Positions 12,946-38,597 of a DNA stretch of 64,000 bases are shown in pieces. The notes below the pieces were generated by a model. That model was not told where the DNA came from and searched no databases. It saw only the letters and a list, made by a program, of their open reading frames with translations. The stretch's first letter is position 1. The number at the start of each line of letters is the position of its first letter. Source of the DNA: Dictyostelium discoideum (taxonomy: Eukaryota); the NCBI GenBank assembly GCA_000004695.1, contig CM000151.3, positions 1,856,001-1,920,000 on the forward strand, read 5' to 3'. The position numbers and the translations under genes are program-made.

Positions 12946-12983
12946 AAATTATTTAATTAATTATTTAATATTTAAATTTTTTA

Positions 12984-13035
<52 letters not shown>

Positions 13036-13110
13036 CACTTCCCAAAATTTTTTATTTTTTTTCTTTTTTTTTTATCAATTTTTTTTTTTTTTAATAATAT
13101 ATTTTTATAA

Positions 13111-17250
<4,140 letters not shown>

Positions 17251-17626: not shown

Positions 17627-17657
<31 letters not shown>

Positions 17658-17660
<3 letters not shown>

Positions 17661-18892
17661 TTTGGCTCGAAATCGAACTTTATTTTATTAATAATAACAA
17701 CATTAATTTGTATTTCATTGACTCACTGTAAATCATTCACACCTTCGTTACTATCCTCTTCTTCATCATCATTTTCTTCTTCTTCTTCTTCAAAAAATAA
17801 ATATTTATATTCAATTTCAAGTGTAAACCCAAATATAGAATCAGGTCAAATTGTTTTAGTTATAGACCCATTAACAAATGAAGTTATTAAAAATAAAACA
17901 GTTTATATACCCTATCGTATAATAGATTTATTAGATGTTGATGAGAGTTCAAATAGTGTAAATTTTATTTTTTTTTATTTTTATTTTTTTTTATTTTTTT
18001 ACTTCTCAAAAATTTTACTGACCTTATTTTTTTTTTATTTTTTTATTTTTTTTTTTAGTTATTATTTTTTTGTTTAATTAATGATGCAAAAAATTTATTA
18101 TTATCATTAAATTTAGATACATTTGAATTTAAAGAGATTGGTGGAACTTATGGTGGATGGGATTATACATATGCTAGACAACCTTATATCTTTGTAAATG
18201 ATAATGTATTCTTACCAGCGAAATTATCATTTTATAATGCTACAGGTTTAACAGTACTTCATTGGGATTTCACAGATAAGAATTCAAAGGGTGGATCATT
18301 TAAAGTCATTGAGATTCCAATCGATGATTTCGATGTAGAATCTGGAATTCCATCAATGGGTGGATACGATTATGTGAATGATTTATTATATGTAACTTAT
18401 CAATCTTTAAATGACCTTTCAGAGAATAACTCAACATCAATTGTTTGCTTTAACCCATTCTCAAGTGACACAAATTCAACTCATAAAATTCATACTGGTA
18501 TTACCGATTTAATTCCAGGTTATATTCATTTACTTTTCACTGATCAAAATGAAGGTGGTTCTCTTTATGCTCTTTCAAAATCATTCAATACTCAAAGTTC
18601 AATTGAAGTTTGTAAAATCAATTTCCAAACTAATAATTGTGATCAAATTTTATCAAAAGAAATGGGTGCCTATTATAATAGTTTCGATTATAGACCTTAT
18701 TTCATTGGTGGTCCCCAAAATTCTGATTTAATCCTTTTGGAATTCACTGAAAAAAATGCAAAACCTTTTATAAACTTTCAATCTGTAAATTTATTAACTT
18801 GGAATGAATCTTCTCCAACTTTACTTTCAAATTATTGGACCTCAACTTTTGGTCCAACTTATTTAACTTTTACTTTTTTCGCTTATATTTAA
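17658..18892 (+). CDS. Predicted secreted protein (signal peptide, Ser-rich linker); join(17658..17957,18059..18892).
   Basis: N-terminal signal peptide MFGSKSNFILLIITTLICISLTHC. Exon 1 ends ...ESSNS at a GTAAAT donor (17958). A 101-nt intron ends TTTTTTAG at 18058, immediately followed by an in-frame ORF that continues into track ORF 18356..18892. No family assigned. Confidence 0.5.
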
Positions 18893-19233
18893 AATAATAA
18901 CAATAATAATAATTATATAAATAAAACAAAAAAACAAAAAATAAAAAACCACCAAATTTATTTATATGTTTAAAAAATAAAAAAAACTCTTTTTTTAATT
19001 ATCTTTTATAATATTTTAAATTTAAATTAAAAAGTAAAAACAATTTTTTATTTATTTATTTTAATTTTTTTTTTTAGAAATATATATTTTACAGTTTTTT
19101 TTTTTTTTTTTTTTTATTTATTTTTTTTGTTTTTTTTGTTTTTTTTTTTTTGTTTAGTTCATAATACAGTTTTAATTGTATATATGTAATAATACTATAT
19201 ATAATCTATTTGATTTCTTGATAGCTAAACTAT

Positions 19234-19548
19234 TTAAAAGAAGTGACCATGGTGATGACCGTGGTGGTGACCGTGGTGGTGATGGTGACCAGTTTCATAG
19301 ACGACTGTGGTAGTTGGATAAACCATTGGTTGTGGGACCATAACTGGAGCGCCCATCATTGGTGGTGGGACCATAACTGGAGCACCCATCATTGGTGGTT
19401 GACCGTAGATTGGCATTGGTTGAACCATTGGTTGGACCATTGGTTGGACCATTGGGACGACTGGAGCACCATAAACGCCGGTGGTGTAGGTAATGGTATC
19501 ATGATGGTGATGACCGTGATGACCGTGATGATGATGATGATGACCCAT
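19234..19548 (-). CDS. His-rich small protein with (P-M-V-Q)/(PPMMGAPVMV) repeats; member 1 of a 4-member paralogue set in this window.
   Basis: MGHHHHHHGHHGHHHH ... PMVQPMVQPMVQPM ... PPMMGAPVMVPPPMMGAPVMV ... HHHHHGHHHGHHHGHFF*. The architecture (His blocks at both ends, Pro/Val/Gln core, GHFF terminus) is shared with 30873..31127, 31722..31991 and 32648..32929. Confidence 0.5.
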   Translation of the reverse strand: MGHHHHHHGHHGHHHHDTITYTTGVYGAPVVPMVQPMVQPMVQPMPIYGQPPMMGAPVMVPPPMMGAPVMVPQPMVYPTTTVVYETGHHHHHGHHHGHHHGHFF

Positions 19549-20170
19549 TTTGTATATATTTATATGTGTAAAATTTTATTTGTTTAAATAATGTGAAAGA
19601 AAAAAAAAAAAATTGAAAAAAAAAAAAAAATTGTTTTTATATTTATTTTATTTTTTTTTTATTTTTTCTATTTTTTTTTGAGAAATTAAAAAAAAAAAAA
19701 ATAAAAAAAAATAAAAAAAAAAAAATATTTTTAACGCCCTTAGCGATCTCTTGTTTTTTCTGGTGACTTGTAAAATTAAACAAAAAATAAAACTTATCTT
19801 TATTTTTCATTATTTTTTATTTTTTTTCCCATATTTTTTAAAAATAATTCGAAAAAAATAATTATTACATATTATAATAATATGTAGTAAAAAGAAAAAA
19901 AAAAAAAAAAAAAATTGATGTTTTTTAAAAAGTGGTAAAATTTTGTGTGGTTTGAATTATTACCACTTTTAAAATAAAAATAAACTTAAATTTAGTTTTT
20001 ATTTTTCAAATAATAAAATAAAATGAAATAAAATAAAATGAAAAAAACAATAAAATAAATAATAAAATTATAAAGGTAATTTTAGATGCAATATAAAATT
20101 TATTTTATTTTAATACATTTTATTACATTATATTTTAATTTATTATTTGTTTTATTTTATTATTTTTTTT

Positions 20171-20422
20171 TTAATTACTTTCAATATTATGATATCCTCC
20201 ATTGCCATTAATTTTTTTGATGGATTTACTAAATTCAATATTTAATGTTAGATTTGAAAATTCATAAAAGAATGTCACCATATATGCAAATATAGATAAT
20301 GCCGACATAATTTCAAAAATTGCTGCCAAGTTATCGATAAAAAATTGTGTAATAATATCTTAAATAAAAAATAAAATTAAATATTAATATATTTATATAA
20401 AAAAAAGAAAAGAGAAAACAGG

Positions 20423-20466
<44 letters not shown>

Positions 20467-21131
20467 AATATAAAAATTAAAACTTACAACCAATAAATAA
20501 ACAAGATATACAAATTAATATTTTTCTAATTATTAAAACTTTCAAAGGAATATCACTTGAATTTTTAATATCTAGTATAGTTTGAGTTAATAAATAAATA
20601 AAACCACATAAAAAAAACAATGCTGCAAAGATAACATGAACAAGGTTTGCGTTATGAAATTGAAAAGATGATACACCATGCATTGATAAACCACTAATGA
20701 ATCCCATTGATGTTGAAAATCTATTGAATCTTAATTCTTTTTTCTCTTTTTTATCATCAAAATATTCCTTTTCAATTATATTATTCTTTATAATTAAATG
20801 TTTAATAAATACCACAATAATCATTAAAAATGCTATAATTGATAATCCAAATGTTCCAATACAACTTTCTTTTTTTTTTTTTAAAAAAAATAAAAAAAAA
20901 AACAATTAGAATTTTTGTTTAATGATAACTCAATGATTAAATTATATTTCATTTATATATATACATACCTGGGGCAAAATCGATTGTATCACTTATATAT
21001 GGAATAATTTGATCATCATCTCCACGTACTTCAGTTATAGCATATGTGGTGATGAATGTAATCGGAACAATTAAAGATATTATACATAATATATAAAAAG
21101 GTTTTATTTGTGTAGTTTTTGATGAAATCAT
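20171..21131 (-). CDS. DRAM / Frag1 / Sfk1 (TMEM150-like) family multi-pass membrane protein; three exons, approximately join(21131..20969,20868..20488,20351..20171) on the minus strand.
   Basis: Exon 1 encodes MISSKTTQIKPFYILCIISLIVPITFITTYAITEVRGDDDQIIPYISDTIDFAP, containing the family PYISDT motif. Its donor is GTATGT. Exon 2 encodes ESCIGTFGLSIIAF ... HNANLVHVIFAALFFLCGFIYLLTQTILDIKNS (compare DRAM [22 protein letters not shown]). Its donor is GTAAGT at 20487..20482. Exon 3 follows a TTTAAG acceptor: YIITQFFIDNLAAIFEIMSALSIFAYMVTFFYEF ... ESN*. Exon 2 boundaries are uncertain by 1 nt. Confidence 0.6.
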
Positions 21132-21237
21132 GAAAAAAAAAAAATAATTAATTAAGCATTTGAAAAAAAAAAAAAAAAATTAACTAAAAAAAAAAAAAAT
21201 TGAAACAGAGTTCCACCTTTTCAACAAATTTTGAAAA

Positions 21238-21420
21238 AAAAAAAAAAAAATTAAAATCCAATTCCACCGAGTATTATTTAATTATTTAATTATTTAATTA
21301 ATTATTCTGGTAATTCAAATAAAAATTAAAATACAATTACACCGAGTATTATTTAATTATTTAATTATTTAATTGTTTATTCTGGTAATTCAAATAAAAA
21401 TACAATTGATGATGACAAAC
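21238..21420. repeat. Two tandem copies of an approximately 85-bp AT-rich unit in the 5' flank of the DRAM-like gene.
   Basis: The string ccaccgagtattatttaattatttaattatttaatt..attctggtaattcaaataaaaat occurs twice in direct orientation. Confidence 0.6.
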
Positions 21421-22127
21421 CAATAATGAAATCAAAAATGAATCCAAAAAGAATAATATAAATTTTATTTTATTTATAATTTTATTCTCAAACAATTTTA
21501 ATTATTTAGATTAATCTATTATTTTAGATCTAAAATAAAAATAACATTCCCACCAAAAACAATGATTGAGTATGTATAAAAATGATTATTTTGAGTGGAT
21601 TTGTGTTTAAAATATAATATAATAAATTTTGTACTTGTTTTTAATAATCATTTTTAAAAAATATATTTTTTTTTTTCTTTTATTATATTATTATTTATTT
21701 TTTTAATATTTTTTTTATTTTTTAATTTTTTATATAATAATAAATATTTTTGTTTTTTTTATTAAGTGTGTGATTGGGAATTTAAATTATAATTTAAATT
21801 ATATATAAATTAAAAATATAAACACTTCTCATAAACTACTTTTTATGGCAATGGGTGAAAAAAAAAAATAATATTCATTTAATTAAAAAAAAACACACCC
21901 TAAAAAAGTTTAATATGAATAAATAGTATTTCAATATGATGAAAGAAACATCGAGTGGTGAGTGTGGTAAACTTAACACAGTGTTTAATAAACATGATGA
22001 GAAATATTGAAAATCATACAACAAAACTGATAAATTACTAGGATGTGTGAGTGTGTTGAAAAACATTTTCAATAAATAATGTGATTATTTTTTAATTCAA
22101 TATTGAAGCATTACCTTATTATTATTA

Positions 22128-22158
<31 letters not shown>

Positions 22159-22398
22159 CAATATTGAAGCATTACCTTATTATTATTATTTTTTTTTTTT
22201 TTATTTATAATTTTTTTTTATTTATTCCTAATCATAACACTATAAATATTTATATTTTTTTTATTATTGAAGCTTTACATTATTATTTTAAATATATTTT
22301 TTTTTAATTGATTTTTATTTTAAATCATAAACATTAATAATAAATTAATAAACACATTCTCAAAAAAAAAAAATTTTAATATTAAAAAAAAATCAAAA

Positions 22399-24672
22399 AT
22401 GAAAATTATTATATTATTTTTTATATTATATTTAGTTTCTGTTACGCTCGGAGTTTTAATTGAACCAGTTTTCAAGGGCAAATATTTAATATTTAAAAAT
22501 AATTTTAAAAATTCTTTTGATGGCAATCTAATTCACCATTATTATCAGATACACATGCCAACACTTGACCATGTAAATTTTTAGCAATATCAATTGTCAT
22601 GACAGCAGCGCATGTTCTTGTTGTGCTATTATTTTTACATTCAAAAACCAAGTCATAGATAAAATCTTGAAAATTTCATTTTTGAAAATATGTACTATCA
22701 ATATCATATGTATATTCCAATGATTGTTTTGTAATTTTAAAATCTGAAATTAAAATAAAATTATTAGAAAAAATTAGTGTTGGAGATATCGATATCTTTT
22801 AAAAAAACACAATGTATCGACAAATGATTTATCCTATTTAGTTTTTTATCGACTCAATTTTTAAAAACAAATAAAATGAGGTAGTTATTAATTTTAAATT
22901 ATTTTGTTAAAAAAATGCAACTCTTTTTTTTTTTTTTAGGTAATCCTTTAGGTGACTCAATAGATGCTACAAATTTATTACTCGATTATAAAGGTGGTTG
23001 TGGTACGAGAATAATTCAGTGGCCAAACGGTTATAAATATAGCTTTAATCATTCTAATCCAGTAATTGATAATATCTCTATTGAAAGCTCATCTTTTATA
23101 TCACTTGGTCATAATTTTTGTAATAGTCCCGAGTCAATTCAAGTTTATTTAGATGGTGTTCAAATTGATAAATCAAAAATAAAATAAAATCAATTGATCA
23201 TGAACAATTTGAAATTATTTACAGTCAAGAACATTCAAAATCCATCATTGTGAAAATTGTCTCTGGTGGACTTGAATCAAACAAATTCAAATTAGACTAC
23301 AAACCAATGCCATTAAAAATTAATAGTGTTCCAAGATTAAAAGGTGGTTCAATTACAATAATTGGTGAAAGATTATCATCACAAGTAAATAATTCAACAA
23401 TCATTGTTAAAATTGGTCAATATGATTGTAAAAATGTAATCTCATCAAAAAATGAAATTCTATGTAATTTAGAATCGGTTTCAAATGTTGAAAAAGTCAA
23501 ATTGGTAGATTTACCAGTTAATATCTCAATAAATGGCATTTTTAATGAAAATAATTTATTATTCTCATTCGATACTCCAATAATATCAGATTTTATACTT
23601 CCTCAAGGTGAAGTTAAATTAGTTGGCCATTGTTTTGGTTATTCACAAATAACTCAAATTAATATTGACAATGTATTACAATCCAACATAACAATTAATA
23701 TAAATGAAAAAGAAACAACACTTTTATTTAAGCCAATTCTTCCAATTAAAAAATCAAAGTTATATATAATTGTCAATGGTACAAAATCAAATACTATTGA
23801 AATTGATTCATCATTTTTTGTAAAAAGTGTTCCATCATCACCTTCAGTAAATGGCCAAACTGTAAACTTTACACTTTTCAATATAAACACAAATAATTTT
23901 AATGCAACACCAATTATGACTTTTCAAGATAATAGTTCAATTAAATCAACTGATTATAAAAATTCAAATGAATATTCCACTCATATATACTCTTTTGAAA
24001 TTCCAAAAAGTTGTGGTAGAAATGAAATTACAATAAACAAGTTTACAATTGTTCATTTATAAAATATAAATCTATCTCTTGTGATATTAAATTAGAAGGT
24101 CCGTTTGATCAACTTTGTAAAATCAAATTTAATGGTAAAGATGAGGAGAACAACATTTCAATATCATATTATCCTCCATTAGTATTAAATTCAACAACGA
24201 TTTCAAATTCATCGATTGGTGGAATTATTACAATTTTTGGTAATGAATTTTATAATGAAATTGATTTAATTACAGTTGGTAAAAGCAAATGTTTAAACTC
24301 TACATTTATAAATTCAACATCAATTTCATGTTTTGTGGAACCTTCAAATTTTATTATTAATCAAGCCAAACAACAACAACAACAACAATATGTTAACATT
24401 ACAATTAATGGTAAAAGTGGTGGCAATAATTTAAATATTTATTTTGATAATTCATTTATTGAAGTTAAAAATTAATCAAGCGAAAATGATAAAAACAACA
24501 ACAACAACAACAATGGTAGAAATAAAATTAATGATGATAGTAAAACTGATGGTAGAAGTTTGTATGAAAAATATAAAAAATATTTTATAGCACCTATAAT
24601 AATCGTTAGTTTGTCATTAATTATAGTTGCCTTTAAACTTATACTTTACTTTAATAGAAAAAATGGGCTGTA
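22399..24672 (+). pseudogene. IPT/TIG-repeat type I membrane protein (Tgr / LagC-like cell-surface family) carrying disabling lesions; probable pseudogene or a gene with sequence errors.
   Basis: Signal peptide MKIIILFFILYLVSVTLG at 22399. A possible 366-nt intron (GTAAAT at 22573 ... TTTTTTAG at 22938) joins in frame to GNPLGDSIDATNLLLDYKGG. There are at least three IPT-like repeats (PMPLKINSVPRLKGGSITIIGERL..IIVKIGQYDCKNV..ILCNLE; [48 protein letters not shown]). The reading frame is broken in A-runs near 23180 and 24050. There is an in-frame TAA at 24474. A TM segment FIAPIIIVSLSLIIVAFKLILYF and the short tail NRKNGL* end at 24672. Confidence 0.4.
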
Positions 24673-24747
24673 GTCTATTGGAAATATATTATAAAAGAGA
24701 AAATAAAAAAATTTAAAAATAGAAAAGAGCAAAAATGTATAGATGGT

Positions 24748-25083
24748 ATGAGAGAAATATTAAATAATGCAGAGAAAAATTTTCCTGACATAAAATTAGA
24801 TAATGTAATAACTTATAAAAAGTATAAAATGCCACAAGAAAAAAGTGTAGAAGGAGAACTAAAAGAACAAGCACCTCCTCTAAGTGAATATGACCAATTT
24901 CCAAGTTATTATTTACATTCACCAAAAGATTCACAACCTTCAAATCAAATTGAAACTTTACCAAAAGATTCACCTCCTCCAAATCAAAATGAAAAATTAA
25001 CAGAAGATTCATTACCACCTTCAAATCAAATTGAAACGTTACCAGAAGATTCATCACCACCTCCAAATCAAACTGAAAAATAA
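24748..25083 (+). CDS. Short ORF encoding a Pro-rich 12-aa tandem repeat (SPPPNQ-I/N-E-T/K-L-P/T-E/K-D); a separate small gene or an out-of-frame tail of the preceding Tgr-like locus.
   Basis: Track ORF 24748..25083. The repeats are visible in both nucleotide and protein sequence. The antisense ORF 24713..25090 mirrors the same repeat. Coding status is uncertain. Confidence 0.25.
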   Translation: MREILNNAEKNFPDIKLDNVITYKKYKMPQEKSVEGELKEQAPPLSEYDQFPSYYLHSPKDSQPSNQIETLPKDSPPPNQNEKLTEDSLPPSNQIETLPEDSSPPPNQTEK

Positions 25084-25293
25084 CAGACAATTCATCATCT
25101 CGAGATGGACCATCAAGCTCTTCATAATTTCTTTTTTTTCTTTACTGGACCACTTTCTGTATTTTTAATAATTACAGATTGGAACCCACCAAAGCTATTA
25201 CTATTATTATTATTGTTGTTGTTGTTGTTATTATTTGTAGTATTCATACCACTTGCAAGATCTGCTAATGGGTCAAATACCATTGGTTTATTA

Positions 25294-25531
25294 TTAATCG
25301 ATTAAAGTTGGTTGTTGTTGTTGGGATGATTGGAAATTTGGTGTTGCTGGTGAAGGTCCACTTCCACTTGCTGCTCTTGGTCTACTTCTTTCGCCAGATG
25401 CTGCATTTGGATTATTTTGGATATGTATTATATAATCCAAAAGCCATAAAAAAAAAATAAAACTCACCTGCTCTATTACTATAATTTTCATATTCTGCTC
25501 TAGTATTACTATATGGATCCGAATCATATGA

Positions 25532-25581
<50 letters not shown>

Positions 25582-25884
25582 AACCTTCATCTCTACCATT
25601 GAAAGAGTCTCTTCTGGTTGTTTCTCTTTGGTTACCACCATATGAATATCTTTGGTTACCACCATATGAATCTCTTTGATTACCACCATATGAATCTCTT
25701 TGATTACTACCATATGAATCTGAATCATAACCACCACCATATGAGCCACCTCCATAACCAAAGTCACTGTTATCATTACCAATACCAACATATTTATTTT
25801 GGTTAGTCTTTGCTTTATCTCTTTCCTCTTTAATTCTTTGATCATCTTGTAATAAATCAATAACTTGTTTTGCTCTTTCACGAA
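25294..25884 (-). CDS. C-terminal two exons of an epsin/ENTH-like protein (last ENTH helix plus Gly/Tyr/Asn/Gln-rich tail); join(25884..25459,25400..25294) on the minus strand; 5' exons not found.
   Basis: The minus strand reads VRERAKQVIDLLQDDQRIKEERDKAKTNQNKYVGIG, which is close to the final ENTH helix of epsins (VREKAKQLVALLRDEDRLREERAHALKTKEKL). It is followed by SYGGNQRD repeats and poly-N. A GTGAGT donor lies at 25458..25453. A 58-nt intron ends AAATGCAG. The last exon reads ASGERSRPRAASGSGPSPATPNFQSSQQQQPTLID*. The exon begins at a TTTTAAAAG acceptor (25885/25886) with no ATG in the 175 bp before the neighbouring gene. Confidence 0.5.
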
Positions 25885-26059
25885 CTTTTAAAATAAATTG
25901 TTTATTTAAAAAAATATTTTGTTATTATGTGAATTCAATTTTTAAAAAATAATGAAAAAAAAAAAAAAAGGATGTAAATATTGATGATAATACTAAACTT
26001 TAAACAAAGGATCTTTTAATAAAAAAAAAGACACAAACCACTTTTTTTGTTTTTTTAAT

Positions 26060-27429
26060 TTATTTTGAATTAATTAAAAGATTATAAACTACAAATGATT
26101 TGGTTTGATCTTTTTTAAAATTAGGAATACTTTCAATTGCTTTTACGATTTGAGCTTCAGATATTTTAAAACCCATTTGATTAATAAAGAATTCGACAAT
26201 ATAAAATTGATCCCAACTAATAGCATGTTCCAATAATAAAGATAATTCTTTTTGAGTGTAAATTGAATTATTATTTGAAAGTTTCTTTGTTAAAACTCTA
26301 CGATATTGTTGATCATAAAATAAATGTTGAATTATTCTTAACCAACCATTTTTAATTACACCCTTTAAAAATTCGAATAGAGTTTCTTTGGCACTTTCAA
26401 TACTCACTTCAAAATCGGTACCATCAAATATTGGAAAATAAAATTCATTTAATAGTTTACATAATAAATTGATATCACCACTTTTTTTTACCCAATCTAA
26501 TAATTCCAAAATAACTTGATAATAGGGAGATGGATAACGTGGAATTCGATAATTATTTTCAAAAATCCATTTATTATTAATTTTATCATTTGAGAATATT
26601 GATTTTATACTATTATTATTATTATTATCTAATTTATTTGATATGAATAAACCAATATAATAACCTTTTGAAATTGTAAATCTACCAGATATTAAATCTT
26701 CATATCTAAAATTAAACATCCAATCAAGTAATTTAATTTTATTTGAATTCATATAATTATCATTTAAATGATCATTAAATTCCATTCTATTATTAGTTTT
26801 ACTAAGGATGGTTATTATATCATCAATATCTAATCTTGGATTTCTATTGATTTCTAAATAATGTGTAATTGCATCTTCTGTATATTTATAAATTCCAATT
26901 GGTTTATTAATTATATATGCTGCTGTTTTAATTAAATTTGATCTTTCAAAATTACTGTTATTTTCTTCAAGAATATTTTTTGAAAATGGTAATAATAAAT
27001 CTATATTACTATTGCTATTATTATTATTATTATTATTATTATCACTACTATTACTATTATTATTATTAGTAATTCCTAATAATTGTTCAAATCTTTCTAA
27101 TAAATCAATTCTACCTAGTGAATACCATGATACCATATCTTGAACTCTTTTAAAGAAACTATTTAAATGGTGAAAACAATAATCTAACATTTTAATTGAT
27201 TTAATATGTCTATGAAAATATGAAAATGATGAAAGGTATCCCTGATGTAATGCCATCATTGACTCTTTTTCAAGTACTTTTATTATATTAGAACAATTAT
27301 TATTAACAATACTATCCTCACCACCATATCCTTTAATTGCGATTTCAAGTAACTCTAAATCATCATATGATATTAATAAATGAAATATTGTGAATACTGA
27401 TAAATTTGACCATTCCTTATTCTTATTAT

Positions 27430-27525
<96 letters not shown>

Positions 27526-28034
27526 GATCATTTATTGCATTATTTATAAATTGAATTCTTTGTTTTTTACTATGACAATTTGAAAATAAAATATATGGAT
27601 ATTCTTCACCATGATTACTAACAGATTTGAAATTTTTAAAAATAGGTGGTAACACTTTTGAATCACCATAATGGTTAACTATAAATTTAAATAATTCGTA
27701 ATTTCCATACTCTAATGAAATAATTAAAAAGTATTCCCTTGGATATGGACTAGATGGAAGATGTGCTTTAAATATATCTTTATCAAAATCTAAATTAAAT
27801 ACTATTCTAATTTCAATTTGTTGAATAATTGTTCTACGAATTGGACTTTTTTCTTCACAAAAATCAATTAACTTTTTAATATTTGCTGTAGTTTGTTGAT
27901 AATTATTATTATTACTATCTTCATCATTTATTAACTTTGGTATTATTGATTTTATTTGAAGTTTAAGTTGAGAATTTGATAATTTTGATTTAATTTCATT
28001 AATTAATGGTACAATCAAATTTAAATCATCATTG

Positions 28035-28075
<41 letters not shown>

Positions 28076-28567
28076 TATATATGAAATTGAATAACAATAA
28101 TTTATTAAATCATTAATTGTAAATTTAGTTATATTAGTGGTACTTTTAATATTTATTTTAATTAAATCATCAAAAAGATTTTTTGTAACTACAGAAGATT
28201 GTAAAAAAAGGTAATTTAAAAATTTATATCTTTTTGGCGGATTTGAACGATGAGAATTTCCATTTGATTGGTTTATTAATAAATTTGTTAATAAACCTTT
28301 AATAATACAATTAGTTTTATCAGTATAAGTTTCCCAAAAATATTTAAACATTTTTAAATGTGAATGTATATTTATTAAATTTAAAATGTTTACCAACGAT
28401 TGTTCTTTTATTTTCCCATTTTTAGGTCCAAATTTACAATAGTTAAAATAATTATCTAATAAAACTTGAAATCCTTGAAAATTACCCACCTCTATTAATT
28501 CTTTTAAAACTTTTTTAAAACTAATAAAATATTTACCATAATTTCTAAATAACAATTCAAAGAATTC

Positions 28568-28666
<99 letters not shown>

Positions 28667-29245
28667 TGTTGGTGCATTTGTTTCTTTTTTATTTGATTTA
28701 TATTCTTTTTGAATATTAATAAATATATTTAAATACCATTCGGATTGTGGACAACGACCATCATAATAATAATTTCCAATTATTGGTTCATTTCTTTTGA
28801 TTTTATCTTTTAATAAATTTAAATAACCATTATTTAAAATCCAATCAATGTAAATTAAATCATCATATGAGTGATATTTACAATTTAAATTACCAAATAT
28901 GGTTTTAAATAAGATTTTATTTTTAAAAACTCTCCAAAATAATTGTTCATGTTTTTCAATATCTTTGATTGGTAATTGATAAATGCTACTATTAAATTTA
29001 TTAATTAATTTCTCTTTTGTTAATTCTTGTTTAATATTTCTTGAATCGTTCACAAATTTCTTTATTCTTTCAATTATTTCACTTTTTCTACCATTTGCTT
29101 TTAATTTTAATGTTTTTGCAACTTTTATTAATTCTCTACTTGATTTTGATTCTAATGATTCCATATCAATATCTTCTTTATTAGTGTCTAAATTATTTAT
29201 ACTATCATTCTCTTTTTTAAATTCATCTGTCTCATTATTTATCAT
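26060..29245 (-). CDS. Second member of the lineage-specific LFWK/RVxKNKxLF family (1061 aa), with poly-Asn tracts.
   Basis: Uninterrupted 3.2-kb ORF. The N-terminal region EQLFWRVFKNKILFKTIFGNL ... WILNNGYLNLLKDKIKRNE is paralogous to 13111..17250. A degenerate partial copy lies immediately upstream (29687..30390). Confidence 0.6.
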
Positions 29246-29686
29246 TTCAATTCAAAGTTTATTTGGGGTGGAATTGAAAAAAAAAAAAATGATCAAAAAA
29301 AAAAAAAAAAAGTAAAATAAAAAAAAAAAAAAATAATGAAAATAAAAAAAATTTAAGAATTAATTTAAAAAAAAAAAAATATTAAAGATCTAAAATAACC
29401 ACGATATTAAAAACACCCGACGATAACCCATACTGCCATCTCTTCATTTACTGTACCAAAATCAGACACATTATAATATTCCGATTCTCTCTGAAAACAT
29501 TTGTAACAATACCCGCAATCCTCATTTACCATCCACAACACATTAAAACAAAAGTGGAGCTCTCTACACATTAACACTTCCTTCTCCCTCATTAACTACA
29601 AACTAAAACATTACACTCTAAAACAAAAATTAAATAACAAACAATAAGCAAAGGAATATTACCTTACATTAGAAATTTATTTATTT

Positions 29687-30390
29687 TTTATTAATTAAAA
29701 GATTATAAACTACAAATGGTTTAGCTTCATCTTTTTCAGAATTTATAATTGCCTTTGCGATTTGAGGTTCAGTTATTTTAAACCCATTTGATCAACAAAG
29801 AATTCGGCAATATAAAATTGATCCCAACTAATAGCATGTCTCAATAATAAAGATAATTCTGTTTGAGTGTAAATTGAATTATTACTTGAAAGTTTCTTTG
29901 TTAAAACTCTACGATATTGTTGATCATAAAATAAATGTTGAATTATTCTTAACCAACCATTTTTAATTACACCCTTTAAAAATTCGAATAGAGTTTCTTT
30001 GGCACTTTCAATACTCACTTCAAAATCGGTACCATCAAATATTGGAAAATAAAATTCATTTAATAGTTTACATAATAAATTGATATCACCACTTTTAAAA
30101 GCCAATCGATGTCATTTATATCATCATATGAGTGATATTTACAATTTAAATAATTAAATATGGTTTTAAATAAAATTTTATTTTTAAAAACTCTCCAAAT
30201 TCTTTCAATTATTTCACTTTTTCTACCATTTGCTTTTAATTATAAAGTTTTTGCTACTTTTGTTAATTATTAACCAGATTTTGATTCTAATGATTCCATA
30301 TCAATATCTTCTTCATTATTATTATAATCTGTCTCATTATTTATCATTTAAGTTCAAAGTTTATTTGGTTTGTGGAATTAAAAAAAAAAA
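29687..30390 (-). pseudogene. Decayed, internally deleted tandem copy of the gene at 26060..29245 (3' 450 bp plus short internal pieces plus 5' end).
   Basis: 29690..30100 matches about 26070..26480 at 90% identity or better, with a 1-nt deletion (ttttaaaaccc vs ttttaaaccc) causing a frameshift. 30100..30180 matches about 28860..28930. 30185..30245 matches about 29060..29110. 30290..30385 matches 29160..29270 (the 5' end, start codon and upstream AAAGTTTATTTGG box). The 110-aa ORF 29773..30105 is 95% identical to the parent C-terminus. Confidence 0.7.
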
Positions 30391-30872
30391 AAAAAAAAAA
30401 AAATTTTATGTTTTGGTGGAAATAAAAAAAAAATAATTAAAGCCCCAAGAAACTCAAAAGCGCCAAAAGTTAACTTGGTGTATTAATGAAAAAAAACCAT
30501 GATATTTAATAAGGGGAGTCGAATAGAAAATAAAAAAATATAAGTAAAAAAAATAAAAAAAAAGAGGCGACAAACCAACCAGCGTCGCATAAAATTACTT
30601 TTCACCACTTTAATGCTGAAATTTTTACATTCAACCTTAATATTTAAACAAACAAAAATTGAAAAACAGAGCGGTTATTTTGATTTGAATAAGAAAATTA
30701 TGACCAAAAATAAATAGATAAATATTTTATTAAACATAAAAAAAAAAAGTAAAAAAAAAAAGTAAAAAAAAATAAAAATAAAGATAATAATAAATAGAAA
30801 AAATAAATTACAAGATTGTTTTTTTTTTTTTTTTTTTTTATTTGTTGAGTAACTTTTAAAACTTCAAACTAT

Positions 30873-31127
30873 TTAAAAGAAATGACCATGATGTCCGTGG
30901 TGTCCATGGTGACCATGATGACCATGATGGTGGCTAGTTTCGATGACAACATTGGTTGGTGGATAAACTACTGGAGCACCCATAACGACTTGTGGTTGAA
31001 CCATCATTGGTGGTTGACCATAAACTGGCATTGGTTGAACCATTGGTTGGACAATTGGGGTAGTTGTGTAAGTAACGTGTTCGTGGTGACCGTGATGACC
31101 GTGATGATGATGACCGTGTGGAGGCAT
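30873..31127 (-). CDS. His-rich small protein, paralogue 2 (MPPHGHHHHGHHGHHEH ... PIVQPMVQPMPVYGQPPMMVQPQVVMGAPVVYPP ... HHHGHHGHHGHHGHHGHFF).
   Basis: Same architecture as 19234..19548. The Dictyostelium start context is an A-rich 5' flank. Confidence 0.5.
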   Translation of the reverse strand: MPPHGHHHHGHHGHHEHVTYTTTPIVQPMVQPMPVYGQPPMMVQPQVVMGAPVVYPPTNVVIETSHHHGHHGHHGHHGHHGHFF

Positions 31128-31721
31128 TTTGTTTTATATTATATTTATTTAATGTTTGAAAAAATTTAATGAATGAATGAAAAAAAAAAAAATAAGTTTT
31201 TATATTGTTTTTTTTATTTTATTATTTTTTTTTTTTAATAATTTTTTTTTTTTTTTCAAAAAATCAAGTGACGTCAAAAAAAGATTTTTTTAATATTTCG
31301 AAAGAAAATTAAAAATTTGGGAGTTTAAAAAAAAACAAAAATTCGAAAATAAAAAGATATTTTTTTTTGTTTTTTATTTCACAATTATTTTTTCTCAAAA
31401 TTAAATTATCAAAATGTTATAACTTTAATTTTTGACCTGATTAAAATTAATTTTATTATATTTTATTTTATTTTTAGAATTTTTTAAAAAAAAAAAAAAA
31501 AAAAAAGTTTAATTTTTACCAATTTTCTCAATTTCTCTTTTTTTGTTTAGGAATATAGGGTTTTAGATTTCATTTAATATAACAATAAATATAAAAATTA
31601 AAAAATAAAATAATAGGTTTTTTTTATTATTATTTTTTTATTTTAGGTAATAATTAATTATAATACAAAGTTTTTTTTTTTTATTTTTGTTTTTGTTGAA
31701 AACTTTTGTTATTTGAATAAT

Positions 31722-31991
31722 TTAGTGGTGACCATGATGACCGTGGTGGTGATGATCATGATGACCATGATGGCCATGGTGATGATGATGTCCATGGTGG
31801 TGACCAGTTTCTAAGACAATTGTAGCTTGTGGATAAACTACTGGTGGTTGAACATAAACTGGTTGGACAACTGGTGGTGGTGCATAAATTGGTTGAACAA
31901 CTTGTGGTGGTGCATAAACTGGAGTGATTGTAATATGTTCATGGTGACCATGGTGACCATGGTGATGATGATGATGACCGTGTGGAGGCAT
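31722..31991 (-). CDS. His-rich small protein, paralogue 3 (core repeats PVYAPPQVVQPIYAPPPVVQPVYVQPPVVYPQ).
   Basis: MPPHGHHHHHHGHHGHHEH ... GHHHGHHHHHGHHGHHDHHHHGHHGHH*. Confidence 0.5.
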   Translation of the reverse strand: MPPHGHHHHHHGHHGHHEHITITPVYAPPQVVQPIYAPPPVVQPVYVQPPVVYPQATIVLETGHHHGHHHHHGHHGHHDHHHHGHHGHH

Positions 31992-32567
31992 TATGTTGTT
32001 TTTTCTTTTTTTTTAAACTAAATTGAAAAATTATTTATTTATATCTTTGTTATTTGTTGTTTGTTTATTTTTTTTTTTAAAAAAGCTAATTGAAATAATA
32101 AAAAAAAAAAAAAGTTTTTATAACCGTTTATTTTTTATTTTTATTTTTTTTTTTTTTTTTTTTTTTTTTTTGTAACTTTCAGATTTTTAAATAAAAATTC
32201 AAATAAAACAGTAGTCTGAAATTAAAAGAAATTTGGTAAAAGGCTGTTTTTTTTATTGGCGTCCTTATGTCGCCAATGTTAAAAGTAATTCTTGTTTGGA
32301 TTCAATTATTAAAAAAAAAAAAAAAACATCAACTTCTTTTTGAAAAAAAAAAACAAAAATTACCAGTGTTGTTTCACTGATTCCAAACCAAAAAAAGGAA
32401 TTATTATAAATTACAAGTATAAATAAATATTATTTTATTGATTATTAAAATAATTACCCAAATCTTAAATTAAAAAAAAATAGTTATTTAAATTTTAATA
32501 ATTTTCCATTTTTTTTTTAAATTTAATTAAAAATAATTTACAATATGTTTGATTTATATTCTTTATT

Positions 32568-32632
<65 letters not shown>

Positions 32633-32647
32633 GGATATTTTATCTAT

Positions 32648-32929
32648 TTAAAAGAAATGACCATGGTGGTGATGGTGATGGCCATGATGGTGGTTATCAG
32701 TTTCATAGACAATAGTTGTGGTTTGTGGATAAACTACTGGTGGTTGACCATAAATTGGTTGAACTACTGGAGGTTGGCCATAAATTGGTTGAACTATTGG
32801 AGGTTGACCATAAATTGGTTGAATACCTACTACTGGAGAAATTGGTTGAACAACTTGAGCTCCATAAACTGGGGTTGTAGTATAAGTAATTTCTTCATAA
32901 TGACCGTGATGATGATGATGATGACCCAT
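32648..32929 (-). CDS. His-rich small protein, paralogue 4 (core repeats PIYGQPPIVQPIYGQPPVVQPIYGQPPVVYPQ).
   Basis: MGHHHHHHGHYEE ... DNHHHGHHHHHHGHFF*. The nucleotide-level repeats of ccataaattggttgaac are obvious on the plus strand. Confidence 0.5.
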   Translation of the reverse strand: MGHHHHHHGHYEEITYTTTPVYGAQVVQPISPVVGIQPIYGQPPIVQPIYGQPPVVQPIYGQPPVVYPQTTTIVYETDNHHHGHHHHHHGHFF

Positions 32930-33670
32930 TTTTATTATTGTATTTATATTTATTTATTTATTTATTTATTTATATATATTAATTTATTTATTTATATTTA
33001 TTAATTTAATATTTTAATATTTTTGATTTAATTATTTTATTGGTTTTATATTTTTTTTTTTATTTTAATATTTATACCCCAATTTTAAAAATAAAATAAA
33101 TAATTAAAATAAAATTAAATAAAAAAAAAATTAATTTTTAATTTCAGATTTTTCAATTTCTTTGAAAAAAAGGTCTGAAATTAAAAATTTTTTAACCAAA
33201 CTAATCAGAATATAAAATAACAATCAATTAACAATATAAAAAAGAAGCCAACTGAAAGGGGTCTAAAATTTAAATAATAGTTACAATTAATCAAACTCAA
33301 AATCTCTTAAATAAATTTTATTTGAAAAAAAAAAAAATAAATAATGTAGAAATTGTTGAAATAAATTAAATAAAAAATAAATATTAATAATGTAGAAATT
33401 TAATATATTTTGGAAACATATTTAATTAAAATAACTATTAAAGTTAAATAATAATTTTAAAATAAAAAAAAAAAAAAAAAAAAAAAAAAAGTGATTTAAT
33501 GAGTGTTGTTGATTTAGGTTTTATTACCAAAAAAAAAAAAAAAAAAAAAAACTAATTTGAATTATAAAAAAAAATATAATTTTATTTGAAGTTGTTTTAG
33601 GGAAAAAAAAAAAAAAATTTTTTTAATCGTTTAAATTATTATAATTACTATTATTTTTATATGTTTTTGA

Positions 33671-34563
33671 TTATTTTCTAGATTTCTTTGAGGAACCTTT
33701 TGGAGGTGAAGATAAGTTTGGTTTTGGTGAAGTTGGTGAGGTGGCTGATTGAGTTGAAGAGCTTGATGAATAACTAGATGATAAATTATCTTCGAGATTT
33801 TTTTCTTTTGGTGATTTCTTGGCTATTGGGATTGGAATTGAAGCAGATGGAGAGGTAGTTGTAGTGGTGGTGGTGGTAGTAGTTGGAGTAACTGGAGGTG
33901 GTGGTAAAGAATCACCATCATTGTTAATAATTGGTGGATTACTATTTGAAGATGATTTTAAAGTTGGTAATGAGCTACTACTAGTATTTGGTAAAACTGG
34001 AATTGGAGCTGGTGTAGAAGAAATTGGTCTAGGATTATTACTTCCTAAACCGTTATTATTATTGTTGTGGTTGTTACTACTAACTAAAGGAATTGGGATT
34101 CCATTTGTTGATGAAATTGGGAATTTATTATTATTATTATTATTATCATTATTACCTAAATGTGGATAAGCTGGAAAATCATCCTCATCACCTAAACCTG
34201 TGAATTTATCAATACCACCATCATCATCTTCTTCATCTTCATCATCAAAATGTTTTAAACCACTTTCCCTAGTGACCATTGGGTTTGGAATTAAATCTTT
34301 TTCTAAATTCTTATTACTATTTTTAAAAAATTGTTGTTGTTGTTGTTGATGAGGTGGTTGTTGGTGATTTGGTGAACCAAAATCTTCTATACCTTTTTTC
34401 ATTAAAAATCCTCCTGTTTCTGGGCTATTATTAAAATTGTTATTATTGAATCCATTATTGGTATTAAAATTTTTATTATTATTATTATTATTACTATTAA
34501 AACCGTTACCGTTATTTATAGTTATAGGTTGACCAACTCTATTACCAAAACTACCACTATTAC

Positions 34564-34602
<39 letters not shown>

Positions 34603-37522
34603 AACTATTATTATTGCTACTATTGTTGTTGCTACCAAAACTATTGCCACTATTATTATTATTAATTGGGATTGGAATAGTTGATTTTGAAATTGGAGTT
34701 TTCATTGCATCATTTAATTTTTCAATAATTTCAATATCATCTTCATCTTTGATATTTACAAAGTAAGAACCTGGATTATCAAAAGAGGAACCAGATTTAT
34801 ATTCACCATCCATACCAATACCATTAGAGGGAGAGGTACTAAAACCACCACTACCATAACCATCTTGAATTCTTGGGGAGATATTTTTTCTTTTTTCAAA
34901 TTTAATAACCTCACCTACTGGGTAATCTTGATCGAAAAAGTTAATTTCACTACCACCCTCCATAGAGTTTGAAGAGACAGCGGGTGAAACTGAATTTGAA
35001 GATCTAAATGTAAATTGAGGTACACCCCAGATTGCACGAATCTCTTGACTATGTGTTGTAATTTCAACATTATATAACCATCTTGCTTCTTGATCTTTTG
35101 ACATGTGATGTTGGAGTTGTTGTTTATTAATCTCTGTTAAACTATATGGAATGAATTGACTTTTGTATTCTGGTGATCTAGTTTTTCTACAAACATCCCA
35201 TTCAGCCACTGGTGTGATTGAAAGGCAAAGAGTATTTTCGGCCATTTCTGATGAGATTGGTGGACGTAGTGGTCTAAGTTCATAGAGAATCAATTGACCA
35301 GTTGGAGAGCAAACGAATAAATTCTCTAAATTTGGTTGATTAGATTCAATGAAACAAGCATTACCACCAGACATTAAACAACCTTGTACAACACTACCCA
35401 AGGTTGAAGAGGATGCTTCATCATTATCATTTCCTAATTTAATTCTATCCATTGCATTAATGGTTAGCAATGATGGAGTTAGGTTATTAACCGATGAATA
35501 ATAATCAATTGGTCTCTTACTATTTGGACTACGAGTTATATGAGAATGAATATCAACTTCACCACCTAATGGATTAATTGCAAATATATGTGTTGTACCT
35601 CTAGATGTTGTTAATGCTACCCATTTACTATTTTCACTTGTTGTAATACCTTGAATCGATGCATTTGTAATACCACGTTTTAAAATATAAATATGTCTAT
35701 ATGATTGTTCAAAATTCATTGAACTATTATTATTATTATTATTATTACTACTAATGATTATACCATTACTGTTATTACCACCATTATTATTTATTATATT
35801 ATTATTTGTATTATTATTTGTGTTATTATTACTATTACCGCTAACTATAATACTATTATTATTTGTTGTATTATTGCTATTATTTGTATTATTATTTGTA
35901 TTATTATTATTATTATTATTACTATTTAAACTTAAACTATTATTAATTATAATACCACTATTATTACTATTATTTATATTATTGTTATTATTGTTATTAT
36001 TACTATTTACACTTGTTGATAATGGAGATGATATAGTTAAAGAATTTGTAAATGGTATAATTTGATAAGTGTTTACTTTTGTACCTTCGGTTGTACTTGT
36101 AAACAAAAGTGTACCAGTTGGATCAAAAGCCAAATAAGAGATTGGATGAGTATGAGGTGGTTTAATGAGTGAAACTATTCTTTGTTTCACAAAATCAAAA
36201 ACAACAATAACACTTGCTGCATCTGGTTTATCGTTCATTCCACCACTACCACCACCACCCAATTGGGGTGCATTACCCATTGCCAACGATGATGTAGAGT
36301 TTGGACTTGTACCTAAAATTGATTGCTCATGATTTTCTGGATATAAATAACTTGATACTTTTTTTCTACCAATATCACCAAAATAATATAATTTCTGTGC
36401 TACCTCTTTTGCAATATCACTGGCAACATCGACTGCTGTATCACTAAAGGTTTGATTTTGTGGTACTGATGGATTACGATTTTGACTATATCCAATACCA
36501 CCACCACCACCGCCACTACTACCACTACCATTACTACTACCACCACCAAAGTAATGACTTGAGTGATGATGACCACCAATGAATGAATAGGATGATTCAT
36601 AATCTGTATATGCAATCCAACGAGATCCCAATGCAATTACACCCAATGATGTTACACTTGGATAACAAGGTAATGATAATCCTTTGATTTTACTCATATC
36701 ATTGGCATTAAATCCTACAATTCTCTCTTTTAACACCACCAATATAATTTGTTGATTCGATAATACATTATAAATTGGTGACTTAAATTTGTACATACTA
36801 ATTAATTCTGTTGTTTGTAATGAAAATATTCTAACCATATTTTTTGTAACTTTTGGATTATCTTCACCTGAACTAAAAAAAATTAAATAATAAAAATAAA
36901 AAAAATAAAAAAAAAAGATTAGTATTTTTTTAATATATATATATATATATATATAAAACAAAAATTAACACATACACAACAGCTAATAATGGTCTTTTAC
37001 CATAAAATGATGATGATTCATTATCAGGTTCTAAAGGATTTGTTAAAACCTTACAAAATTTTGTAAGTCCATCTCTACATGATAACAATTCCTTAACTCC
37101 ATCTGTATGATTTAAATCCCAAACTTGAAAACCATTATTATAACAATTTATTAAAATTTTATGTCTTAAAAATGAATAATTTTTTTTTTTTTTTTTTTTT
37201 TGTATTTAATAAAAGAAATAAAATAAAATAATTAATATCCTCCTTTTTTTTAAAAAAAAATATATATATAATTTTATATTTACTTTTCACCTTGAATAAA
37301 ACATTCATCAAAATAAGTACCAACTATAGTATCTTTTTCTTCAAATGTTACAGGTGAATTCATAATTTGTTTCTTTATTGATGATTTAATACTACTTGGA
37401 ATGTAGGATGAAATACCTTTAATATAACCTGTAATTACGGATTGATTAAGATAATTGGTTTTCTCCTCTGCTTTCATTCCTCCATAACCTGAATTTGTAT
37501 GATTTAATGCATTTTGGTACAT
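33671..37522 (-). CDS. BCAS3-like WD40/beta-propeller protein (PROPPIN-related) with a long low-complexity Asn/Ser/Gly-rich C-terminal half; join(37522..37284,37164..36976,36872..33671) on the minus strand.
   Basis: Exon 1 (MYQNALNHTNSGYGG ... FIQGEK) ends at a GTAAAT donor. Exon 2 (HKILINCYNNGFQVWDLNHTDGVKELLSCRDG ... FYGKRPLLAVV) ends at a GTATGT donor. Exon 3 follows a TTTTTTTTAG acceptor. The motifs FKSPIYNVLSNQQIILVVLKERIVGF, VIALGSRWIAYTDYE and YLAFDPTGTLLFTSTTEGTKVNTYQIIP match BCAS3 (FKTPIYDL..ILVVVLQEKIAAF, ALGSRWLAYAENK, TDTLGHDFHVFQI). Confidence 0.75.
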
Positions 37523-38597
37523 TGTTTTTATTATACTTTTGTTGTTATTATTGTTGCTGCTGCTGCTGCTTTATTATTATATTATTACTGTGGCGCTACT
37601 ACTACTACTACTAAACTAAACTAATCTAACCAAACTACAACTAAATTTTATTTCCTTCTGTTGGATTTTGGAGTGAGTGACCTATTTGTTTGTTTGTAGT
37701 ATGAGAGTGAGTTGATATTTTTTTTTTTTTTTTTTTTTTTTAATTTAAAAAATAGTGTTATTTATTTGACTGTTTTTTATTACTATATTATTAATTGTGT
37801 GTGTGTGAAAATTTAAAGAATTGAAAAAATAAAAAAAAATTAAAAAAGAAAAAAAAAAAAAAAGAAAAAAATAAAATTAAAAAAAATAAAAAAAAAAAAG
37901 AAAAAAAATTGAAAAAATGTTTTTAAGATAATGTGAGTTTATTATTATATAATTAACACTATATACGTGTATTACTATTATTATATTGTTTTTATTTTAT
38001 ATGAAGTCCAAAAAAATTAAGTTTGGAAATTTAAGAAATTTAATTAAAAAATAAAAAAAAAATAAGAGGAAAAATAAAAAAAAAATTATAAAAAATTTTT
38101 TTTTGAAAAAATAAAAAAAAAAAAAAATTAAAAAATTAAAGAAAATATCAAAACAATCCAATCAATGATTGGGTTGCCACCTCTTTTAAAGTTTTGTAGA
38201 AAAAAAATAAAAAAAAAAAAAACAATAAAAAATAATAAAAAAAAATAATAAAAAAAACAATAAAAAATAAAAAAACAAAAAGAAAAAAAAGGCAAAATGA
38301 AAATTTTTATTTTTTTTCAAATAATTTAATTTAATTTAACACCTGTTGTGTAGTTAATATGAAAATATTAATTATTTTTATTTTTATTTTTATTTTTTTT
38401 TCAAATAATTTAATTTTTTTTTATTTTATTTGGGTTTAATTTAATTTTTAAATAAAAAAAAAAAAGGCATGAAATTTTTAAGGTTTGAATTAGAAATTAA
38501 TTTGGGTAAACCCAGATTATAATTTTTTTTTTTTTTTTTATATATATTATTTTTTATTTTTATTATTTTTTTTTTTTTTTTTTTATTATTATTTTTT

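Follow-up and report, generated by a model that had tools for sequence, protein, structure and literature searches.

Duplicated pseudogenes that have later been subject to gene conversion lie next to their parent gene in the same orientation and keep the parental leader. They carry nonsense and frameshift lesions, internal deletions at short homologies, neutral substitutions and a conversion tract. The locus described here shows all of these features. It consists of an intact gene (hereafter gene A) and a 728-bp mosaic of the same gene (29676..30403) that lies on the same strand, about 370 bp upstream of gene A, in a 64,000-nucleotide stretch of DNA (the window) that is part of Dictyostelium discoideum chromosome 2. 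No essential difference separates this copy from the duplicated pseudogenes, and the comparison fails to account only for the 370 bp of unique sequence that form the spacer at the junction.

On the protein level, the closest described relatives of the gene A product are the Dictyostelid proteins that combine a SAP domain with an LFWKVFKNK motif, such as DDB_G0285087 (a 'SAP domain-containing protein' in UniRef), ACTFIR_002419 and ACTFIR_000616. These are paralogues of gene A at 22-45% identity, none of them characterized, and gene A resembles them in its N-terminal architecture, which comprises a SAP-like helix pair, a linker, a module of the form LFWKVFKNK..IF..Y..LLKDKV and a helical body. 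The features of the locus, together with a more distant gene that shares the module (gene C), are as follows.

13111..17250, plus strand: gene C, an ORF of 1379 aa with the LFWKV module at its start
26060..29245, minus strand: gene A, the intact parent, one uninterrupted ORF of 1061 aa
29246..29304, minus strand: proximal 5' leader and T-run of gene A, which the alignment shows to be common to the copy, upstream of the copy's ATG
29305..29675, no strand: spacer between the copy and gene A, with an A/T-run segment (29305..29395), a core that is C-rich and G-poor on the plus strand (29400..29620) and a short A-rich tail
29676..30096, minus strand: 3' block of the copy, the last approximately 140 codons of gene A, the stop codon and about 8 nt past it
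29886..30096, minus strand: tract of 211 bp, 100% identical to gene A 26275..26485, abutting the deletion junction
30073..30199, minus strand: middle block of the copy, the LFWRV module (gene A aa ~103-145)
30199..30403, minus strand: 5' block of the copy, with the leader, the ATG (30345..30347), the N-terminus and the SAP remnant
30404..30766, no strand: unique sequence beyond the 5' end of the copy, up to the point (30766) from which the D. citrinum locus is again homologous

The parent gene and its family

A weak SAP domain was detected in gene A at aa 32-65; its score against Pfam PF02037 (21.2 bits) is below the gathering cut-off of 23.9, as are the scores of the D. citrinum orthologue P0001 (22.0) and of the paralogue P0002 (21.1), and the sub-threshold match occupies the same N-terminal position in all three proteins. 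The SAP-like region is followed, from about aa 100, by the LFWRVFKNKILF module, which is covered by no Pfam family; the protein also contains poly-Asn tracts and is elsewhere predicted to be all-helical. The AlphaFold model is all-alpha, with a mean pLDDT of 61.6, and its best-predicted part comprises residues ~910-1040 (block-mean pLDDT ~71-91). All-helical structure is the property of alpha-solenoid repeat proteins (HEAT/ARM/PPR-like scaffolds), and the top PDB matches of the model in a Foldseek search are indeed solenoids, e.g., Pds5B, CRM1 and PPR10, although with all E-values above 1e-3 and TM-scores of 0.1-0.2 these matches indicate likeness of fold class only, not membership. The gene A product is probably confined to Dictyostelids and would consist of a SAP-like N-terminal part followed by a long body of alpha-helical repeats. 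Judging only from the predicted fold and from a SAP score under the cut-off, its likeliest role would be that of a nuclear scaffold tethered to nucleic acid or chromatin. Neither exact look-ups nor word-indexed searches for the name of gene A in the reference annotation returned a match. A pattern search located the heptanucleotide CCACCCC within the gene A leader, at 29265..29271.

The original prediction listed gene C as a third, intact family member. The ORF is there and the module is common to both genes: a comparison of the gene C N-terminus with the family module profile yields an hhalign probability of 98% (E = 1.9e-13, 58 columns). The kinship is nevertheless confined to this N-terminal module of about 60 aa, beyond which neither BLASTP nor tblastn found similarity between the two proteins; in gene C, 11 residues precede the module, and no SAP domain was matched. 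Even within the module region of gene A, the direct comparison gives only E = 26 in BLASTP and E = 0.004 in tblastn (over aa 100-153).

Structure and divergence of the copy

When the segment 29400..30800 was compared with 25900..29400 using blastn, three collinear same-strand blocks with 78-93% identity were recovered. The 3' block of the copy (29676..30096) aligns with gene A 26055..26485 (92.8% identity, E = 0), the middle block (30073..30199) with 28811..28938 (89%, E = 8e-44), and the 5' block (30199..30403) with 29064..29304 (77.8%, 40 gap columns, E = 7e-57). A tblastn search with the gene A product recovered the same pieces and no further piece in the window. The copy thus retains the 5' leader, the start codon, a remnant of the SAP domain, the LFWRV module and the last ~140 codons. 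Together with the base-level alignments and the stop codons, these matches bear out the original proposal of a same-strand copy of gene A in which large internal segments are deleted and the reading frame is lost; the limits proposed then, 29687..30390, are within about 12 bp of those obtained with blastn.

Relative to gene A, the copy has deletions of 2.3 kb, 126 bp and ~33 bp. The largest joins two similar 'DW..G..NLL' repeats that are internal to gene A; at the junction there is an imperfect homology of about 24 bp (GATTGG...AATTTATTA), seen as the overlap of the blocks at 30073..30096, as well as a 1-bp frameshift. The 126-bp deletion, between the 5' and middle blocks, is in frame, and the indels between the 5' block and gene A, which add up to about 33 nt, are net in frame; these two features could hint at a past period as a coding gene. 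The loss of frame had originally been attributed to a single frameshift, whereas there are two, of 1 bp each, near 30090 (the large-deletion junction) and near 29782, and in addition three nonsense codons. The latter, in-frame TAA triplets at codons 26, 27 and 36 (30270..30272, 30267..30269 and 30240..30242), fall in the region of the SAP remnant. In the 3' block, the 1-bp deletion near 29782 results in a premature TAA and is followed by a 9-bp deletion.

The copy differs from gene A by about 10%, with the exception of the identical 211-bp tract, a run that was reached in 0 of 20000 permutations. Given that gene A differs from D. citrinum by 0.204 in this tract (the rest of the 3' block differs from gene A by 0.105), conservation alone is insufficient to account for the identity, which points to a recent gene conversion between the copy and gene A. 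Since gene conversion may have erased older divergence, the duplication could predate its apparent age. Three-way polarization against D. citrinum assigns 105 changes as shared-derived, 29 as specific to the copy and 16 as specific to gene A; the N-terminal difference between the copy and gene A is in part a change in gene A rather than a loss in the copy. Among the 107 codons compared in the C-terminal ORF of the copy, there are 8 non-synonymous and 0 synonymous substitutions, a pattern with P ~0.002 under omega = 0.2 and ~0.2 under neutrality. Accordingly, neither these substitutions nor the 29 vs 16 lineage-specific changes show a sign of purifying selection on the remaining ORF, although the numbers are small.

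P0001, the orthologue in D. citrinum, is syntenic and shares 57% identity with the gene A product over 100% of the query. The syntenic D. citrinum locus is single-copy, and therefore the duplication looks lineage-specific, although loss of a second copy in D. citrinum is a formal possibility. A second D. discoideum strain has the same structure, with 1 SNP in ~1475 bp and an identical spacer.

Alternative readings of the copy and the spacer

The databases treat the copy as protein-coding: it is annotated in strain AX4 as DDB_G0272722 (UniProt Q86IJ7), a hypothetical protein of 105 aa, and in the second strain as ACTFIT_002625, of 144 aa, and both products were exactly reproduced from window positions 29773..30347. 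If these models were correct, the copy would be a live spliced small gene encoding 105-144 aa, in which the first 24 residues of gene A are joined to its C-terminal helical unit, possibly yielding a truncated competitor. The retained proximal leader and ATG, the two in-frame deletions and a 110-codon C-terminal ORF that is still open (29773..30105) and corresponds to the best-predicted part of gene A are all in line with such a gene. The two pipelines disagree on the exon structure, however, and the introns that their models require, either a single one of 257 nt (AT 0.80, GTTAAT...TTGAAG) or a pair of 42 nt and 98 nt (AT 0.83 and 0.73), are exon-like in composition and homologous to gene A coding sequence. 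D. discoideum introns are much more AT-rich than these segments. Furthermore, every substitution in the ORF is non-synonymous, and the ORF is ended by the stop that a frameshift created, with the loss of the last ~35 residues. Literature searches on DDB_G0272722, DDB_G0285087 and related terms returned nothing specific, and DDB_G0272722 appeared in no paper found. We consider a live spliced gene improbable; both models probably arose as artefacts of annotation, with 'introns' placed so as to bypass the lesions. The copy, which is the same DNA as DDB_G0272722 and ACTFIT_002625, is by the present evidence a pseudogene of its downstream neighbor. It may still be transcribed or translated into a short product. 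A more elaborate version, to which we give very little credence, would have the copy transcribed from the kept leader into a C-terminal helical micro-protein of ~100 aa, or into a non-coding RNA that runs through the spacer into the gene A promoter; the product would modulate gene A in cis or as a truncated competitor, and the spacer would then be a recent acquisition with the role of a regulatory or RNA element. Less credible again is the reading of the copy as a processed pseudogene, a retrocopy of gene A mRNA inserted beside its source. Homology to gene A extends from the T-run ~57 bp upstream of the ATG to ~8 bp after the stop codon and ends within AATAAA-like sequence, and therefore the copy roughly spans the extent of the transcript, as a retrocopy would. 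Against this reading, there is no poly(A) tail and no target site duplication (TSD): the homology ends with ...AATAAATAAA, followed by TTTCTAATG, and the only repeats are A/T runs. The placement 370 bp upstream of gene A in the same orientation fits tandem duplication rather than random reinsertion, and internal deletions at microhomologies are no hallmark of retrocopies; the loss of introns cannot be scored because gene A has none.

The spacer raises a separate alternative, namely that it is independently functional or mobile, whether as a piece of a Dictyostelium repeat or transposon, as a gene for a non-coding RNA or as a short Cys-rich ORF, and that the duplication junction formed around it. 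Its composition is coding- or element-like and unlike that of intergenic DNA, with GC of 0.32-0.40 and a skew of about -0.6: the 200-nt window from 29401 has a GC content of 0.365 and a GC skew of -0.62, and summed 50-nt counts for 29400..29599 give 60 C and 14 G on the plus strand, compared with a GC content of 0.18 +/- 0.075 in the non-ORF DNA of the window. No other GC-rich non-ORF segment of the window is as skewed. The minus strand contains an ORF of 61 aa (29407..29592) with a CxxCxxC motif, and the sequence is perfectly conserved in the second strain, although everything nearby is conserved likewise. On the other side, neither blastn nor tblastx found a second copy in the 64-kb window or in the D. 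citrinum locus (A/T runs only), and there are no terminal repeats or TSD at the spacer beyond A/T runs. Rfam searches, of the whole window at gathering scores and of 29250..29750 at E<=10, produced no match, predicted folding of the two strands is no better than that of shuffles (z-scores +0.93 and +0.60), and there is no DUSE promoter motif nearby. The six reading frames match none of 5.8 billion proteins at E<=10, and the ORF is rich in G-ending codons, which are atypical for the D. discoideum genome, as read from the sequence. A search for an exact 21-mer in JGI metagenomes and blastn against plasmids were negative, and the window contains no tRNA genes that could attract tRNA-targeted elements. 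The atypical composition originally ascribed to 29400..29680 holds, but none of the results identifies the segment as a repeat, as an RNA gene or as coding sequence; an entity of this kind seems unlikely, if somewhat less so than the live-gene and retrocopy readings of the copy.

Two further candidates for the spacer were rejected. A regulatory island of the GBF/G-box type is not indicated, with no KGKGKGK half-site in 29400..29680. When the spacer was aligned locally, with GC weighting, to the sequence upstream in D. citrinum as a test for ancestral flanking sequence, only a 12-nt match was obtained, which was equalled in 6 of 300 shuffles and is too weak. The spacer matches neither the present 3' flank of gene A nor the region upstream of the copy. 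We infer that it is unique non-coding DNA, either a diverged gene A promoter region or filler captured at the duplication junction. Simple tandem duplication gives no account of the 370-bp spacer.

Origin and significance of the locus

The 728-bp mosaic is very probably a non-processed (duplicated) pseudogene, that is, a dead partial tandem duplicate of the adjacent gene A. Under this scenario, once the D. citrinum lineage had split off, a tandem duplication would have copied a segment of approximately one transcription unit. Recombination between the two homeologous repeats, or slippage between them, would have removed the middle of the upstream copy, and the remainder would then have undergone neutral decay, with a later gene conversion re-homogenizing the 211 bp beside the junction.

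In practical terms, the annotation needs a correction: DDB_G0272722 (Q86IJ7) and the 144-aa product in the more recent strain annotation should be marked as a fragmentary pseudogene of the SAP-domain gene that lies downstream. As a duplicate pseudogene the locus is ordinary and raises no wider question. On a small scale, it offers a clear illustration of how lineage-specific tandem duplication, deletion between homeologous repeats within a gene, and gene conversion look in a genome of extreme AT richness.

An internally deleted copy of the SAP-domain gene

When the 1.4 kb upstream of the intact SAP-domain gene was compared with this gene by blastn, three blocks were recovered that are collinear between copy and gene, lie on the same strand and match far beyond chance (E 1e-44 to 0). 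The mosaic copy of the neighboring gene that had been proposed in the original prediction is thus real, with coordinates correct within ~12 bp.

Parent gene and the blocks of its copy
26060..29245, minus strand, parent ORF, 1061 aa
copy 30403..30199 = gene 29304..29064, minus strand, 5' block, 77.8% identity, 40 gap columns
copy 30199..30073 = gene 28938..28811, minus strand, middle block, 89% identity
copy 30096..29676 = gene 26485..26055, minus strand, 3' block, 92.8% identity

The homology extends from a T-run ~57 bp upstream of the ATG (30345..30347 in the copy) to ~8 bp past the stop codon, and a tblastn search of the window found no further pieces of the parent except for a match of its N-terminal LFWKV/LFWRV module at 13138..13341. 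The large internal deletions proposed previously are present, but the lesions are more numerous than the single frameshift then noted, including two frameshifts and, within the SAP remnant, three in-frame TAA codons. Translated from the ATG, the copy reads MINNETDYNNNEEDIDMESLESKSG, two stops, LTKVAKTL, one stop and LKANGRKSEIIERIWRVFKNKILFKTIF...DIDWLLK, and it lacks the linker that connects the SAP remnant with the LFWRV module (126-bp deletion, in frame). The large deletion spans 2.3 kb (gene 28811 to 26485); at this site, copy 30073..30096 matches both parental sites, where the N-terminal 'IDWILNNGYLNLL' and the C-terminal 'LDWVKKSGDINLL' are encoded by similar stretches. One base is absent at the junction (the first frameshift), the C-terminal part is open for 107 parental codons, and a T-run contraction near 29782 (the second frameshift) leads to GLK-stop, followed by a 9-bp deletion. 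The TATAATAATAATGAAGAAGAT of the copy is closer to the GTTATGATGATGAAGATGAAGAT of Dictyostelium citrinum than is the version in the parent, and the N-terminal indel pattern stems partly from alteration of the parent and not from sequence lost by the copy. A G-box/CA-element-like CCACCCC is located at 29265..29271, 20-26 nt upstream of the parental ATG; its counterpart in the copy (30371..30379) has decayed to CCACAAACC.

The window exactly encodes two proteins found in the databases, namely XP_644857.1/Q86IJ7 ('hypothetical protein DDB_G0272722 [Dictyostelium discoideum AX4]') and KAM9951938.1 from another D. discoideum assembly. The 105-aa AX4 product requires one 257-nt 'intron' (30274..30018, GTTAAT...TTGAAG, 80% AT), and the product from the other strain (144 aa) requires two, of 42 nt (83% AT) and 98 nt (73% AT). 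Genuine D. discoideum introns are far richer in AT, and 42 nt is implausibly short for an intron in this species. Given that, in addition, every 'intron' in both models excises exactly the stops or a frameshift and is homologous to parental coding sequence, and that the two annotation pipelines disagree on the exon structure of the remnant, we conclude that both gene models are artefacts. No paper mentioning DDB_G0272722 was found in the literature.

Age of the duplication and probable gene conversion

The syntenic D. citrinum locus, which shows 72-86% DNA identity to the window across most of 16000..40000, contains one gene in the interval from the His-rich cluster to Frag1; neither a second copy nor a spacer-like sequence was found there. 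In three-way alignments, copy and gene share a state that is absent from D. citrinum at 105 sites, whereas 29 changes are specific to the copy and 16 to the gene. Accordingly, the duplication, or the last homogenization, appears to postdate the split of the two species, and the copy has evolved ~1.8 times faster than the gene.

The divergence between copy and gene is 0.105 in the 5' block, 0.102 in the middle block and 0.105 in the distal half of the 3' block, but drops to 0.000 across 29886..30096 (211 bp), a tract in which gene and D. citrinum diverge by 0.204; an identical run of this length was obtained in none of 20000 permutations. This pattern is typical of a recent gene-conversion tract that is delimited by the deletion junction. 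All 8 differences from the gene within the 107-codon ORF are non-synonymous (by our own calculation, P ~0.2 under neutrality and ~0.002 under purifying selection at omega=0.2), so this ORF looks compatible with neutrality and not with purifying selection of that strength. The locus of a second D. discoideum strain differs from window 29246..30718 by 1 SNP in ~1475 bp.

The parent gene, its flank and its relatives

The homology between copy and gene and that between D. discoideum and D. citrinum end at the same point, 26055/26056, beyond which 4.9 kb (21145..26056) have no counterpart in the syntenic locus (~480 bp there, between 13086 and 13564). Therefore the original 3' flank of the parent has been replaced, which explains why a simple 'd-prime/u-prime' junction is no longer recognizable.

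ORFs in the 4.9-kb block and the neighborhood
22915..23187 and 23250..24062, plus strand, Tgr-like ORFs (Pfam Ig_TgrO1 1.8e-12, TIG 8e-6)
~25300..25890, minus strand, ENTH-like gene fragment (VRERAKQVIDLLQDDQRIKEERDKAK, then GYGG/NQR repeats)
19234..19548, 30873..31127, 31722..31991 and 32648..32929, minus strand, small His/Pro-rich ORFs (MPPHGHHHH...HGHFF, 84-104 aa)

The ENTH-like fragment, which probably contains an intron near 25470, matches the last ENTH helix only (profile positions 103-124 of 124, E=0.11) and looks like an epsin-like gene devoid of its ENTH domain. In the automated annotation of GCA_054883475.1 (second-strain locus 11103..15054, window ~29245..25300), the parent is a 1212-aa product; this model apparently skips the conserved stop by splicing and runs on into the fragment, and it is doubtful because the D. 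citrinum orthologue ends where the 1061-aa ORF does. The window has a GC content of ~20%, with ORFs rich in poly-Asn. The His/Pro-rich ORFs, to which the region at 31-34 kb owes its strong positive GC skew, have no Pfam match, and they are arranged differently in D. citrinum. Of five complete ORFs of the window, the 1061-aa and 1379-aa genes among them, none was present in the protein collection by exact-sequence look-up, and word-indexed searches returned no reference protein of the parent, both pseudogene models being present there; probably, the reference models differ from the plain ORFs or are absent from the index.

The SAP match of the parent (aa 32-65) scores 21.2 bits, under the cut-off of 23.9, and sub-threshold matches also occur in its orthologue and one paralogue. 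In an exhaustive scan of 1.84 billion representatives by HMMER, 21 proteins reached E<=1e-3; those among the strongest whose origin was looked up come from Dictyostelium, and most are confined in their match to the N-terminal ~150 aa, i.e., SAP and the LFWKVFKNK..IF..Y..LLKDKV module, for which no Pfam family was found. The AlphaFold model, built on an 11-sequence alignment, is all-helical, with a mean pLDDT of 61.6 and block means of ~71-91 over residues ~910-1040, and its resemblance in Foldseek is to generic alpha-solenoids alone, at E > 1e-3. Our best guess is that the parent might be a nuclear, SAP-tethered helical-repeat scaffold. The ORF at 13111..17250 (plus strand), previously considered a third, intact family member, carries the module at its very start (hhalign probability 98%, E 1.9e-13 against the module profile), which upholds a relationship at this level; no SAP domain and no similarity to the parent beyond the module were found, so that this gene is related at the module level and does not belong to the close family.

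The spacer

The 370 bp from the copy end (29676) to the parent leader (29304) consist of an A/T-run part and a core (29400..29620) with a GC content of 0.32-0.40, compared to 0.18 +/- 0.075 for non-ORF DNA of the window, and with 60 C and 14 G per 200 nt on the plus strand. Its strand skew is the strongest among the GC-rich non-ORF segments of the window, which bears out the atypical character originally ascribed to it. No second copy exists in the window or the D. citrinum locus, and, other than A/T runs, neither terminal repeats nor duplications flank the spacer.

A known RNA family (no Rfam match at E<=10), a structured RNA (folding no better than shuffles on both strands) and coding sequence (no match of six frames to 5.8 billion proteins) were rejected as identities of the spacer; neither a DUSE motif, a G-box half-site nor a nearby tRNA gene was found, and there was no exact 21-mer match in metagenomes and no blastn match to plasmids. 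The 61-codon ORF within it (29407..29592, minus strand; from ATG, with the Cys-rich stretch EDCGYCYKCF) has G-ending codons atypical of the D. discoideum genome and no homologue among the 5.8 billion proteins, and is probably a chance ORF. The only lead is the 12-nt ATCGTCG(T)GGTG in common with the D. citrinum upstream region, equalled in 6 of 300 shuffles. The spacer could be either the diverged promoter of the parent or filler DNA at the duplication junction.

Altogether, the copy represents a duplicated pseudogene of the ordinary kind, specific to this lineage and carrying a conversion tract, which has been mis-annotated as a small gene and is accompanied by one compositionally odd spacer.
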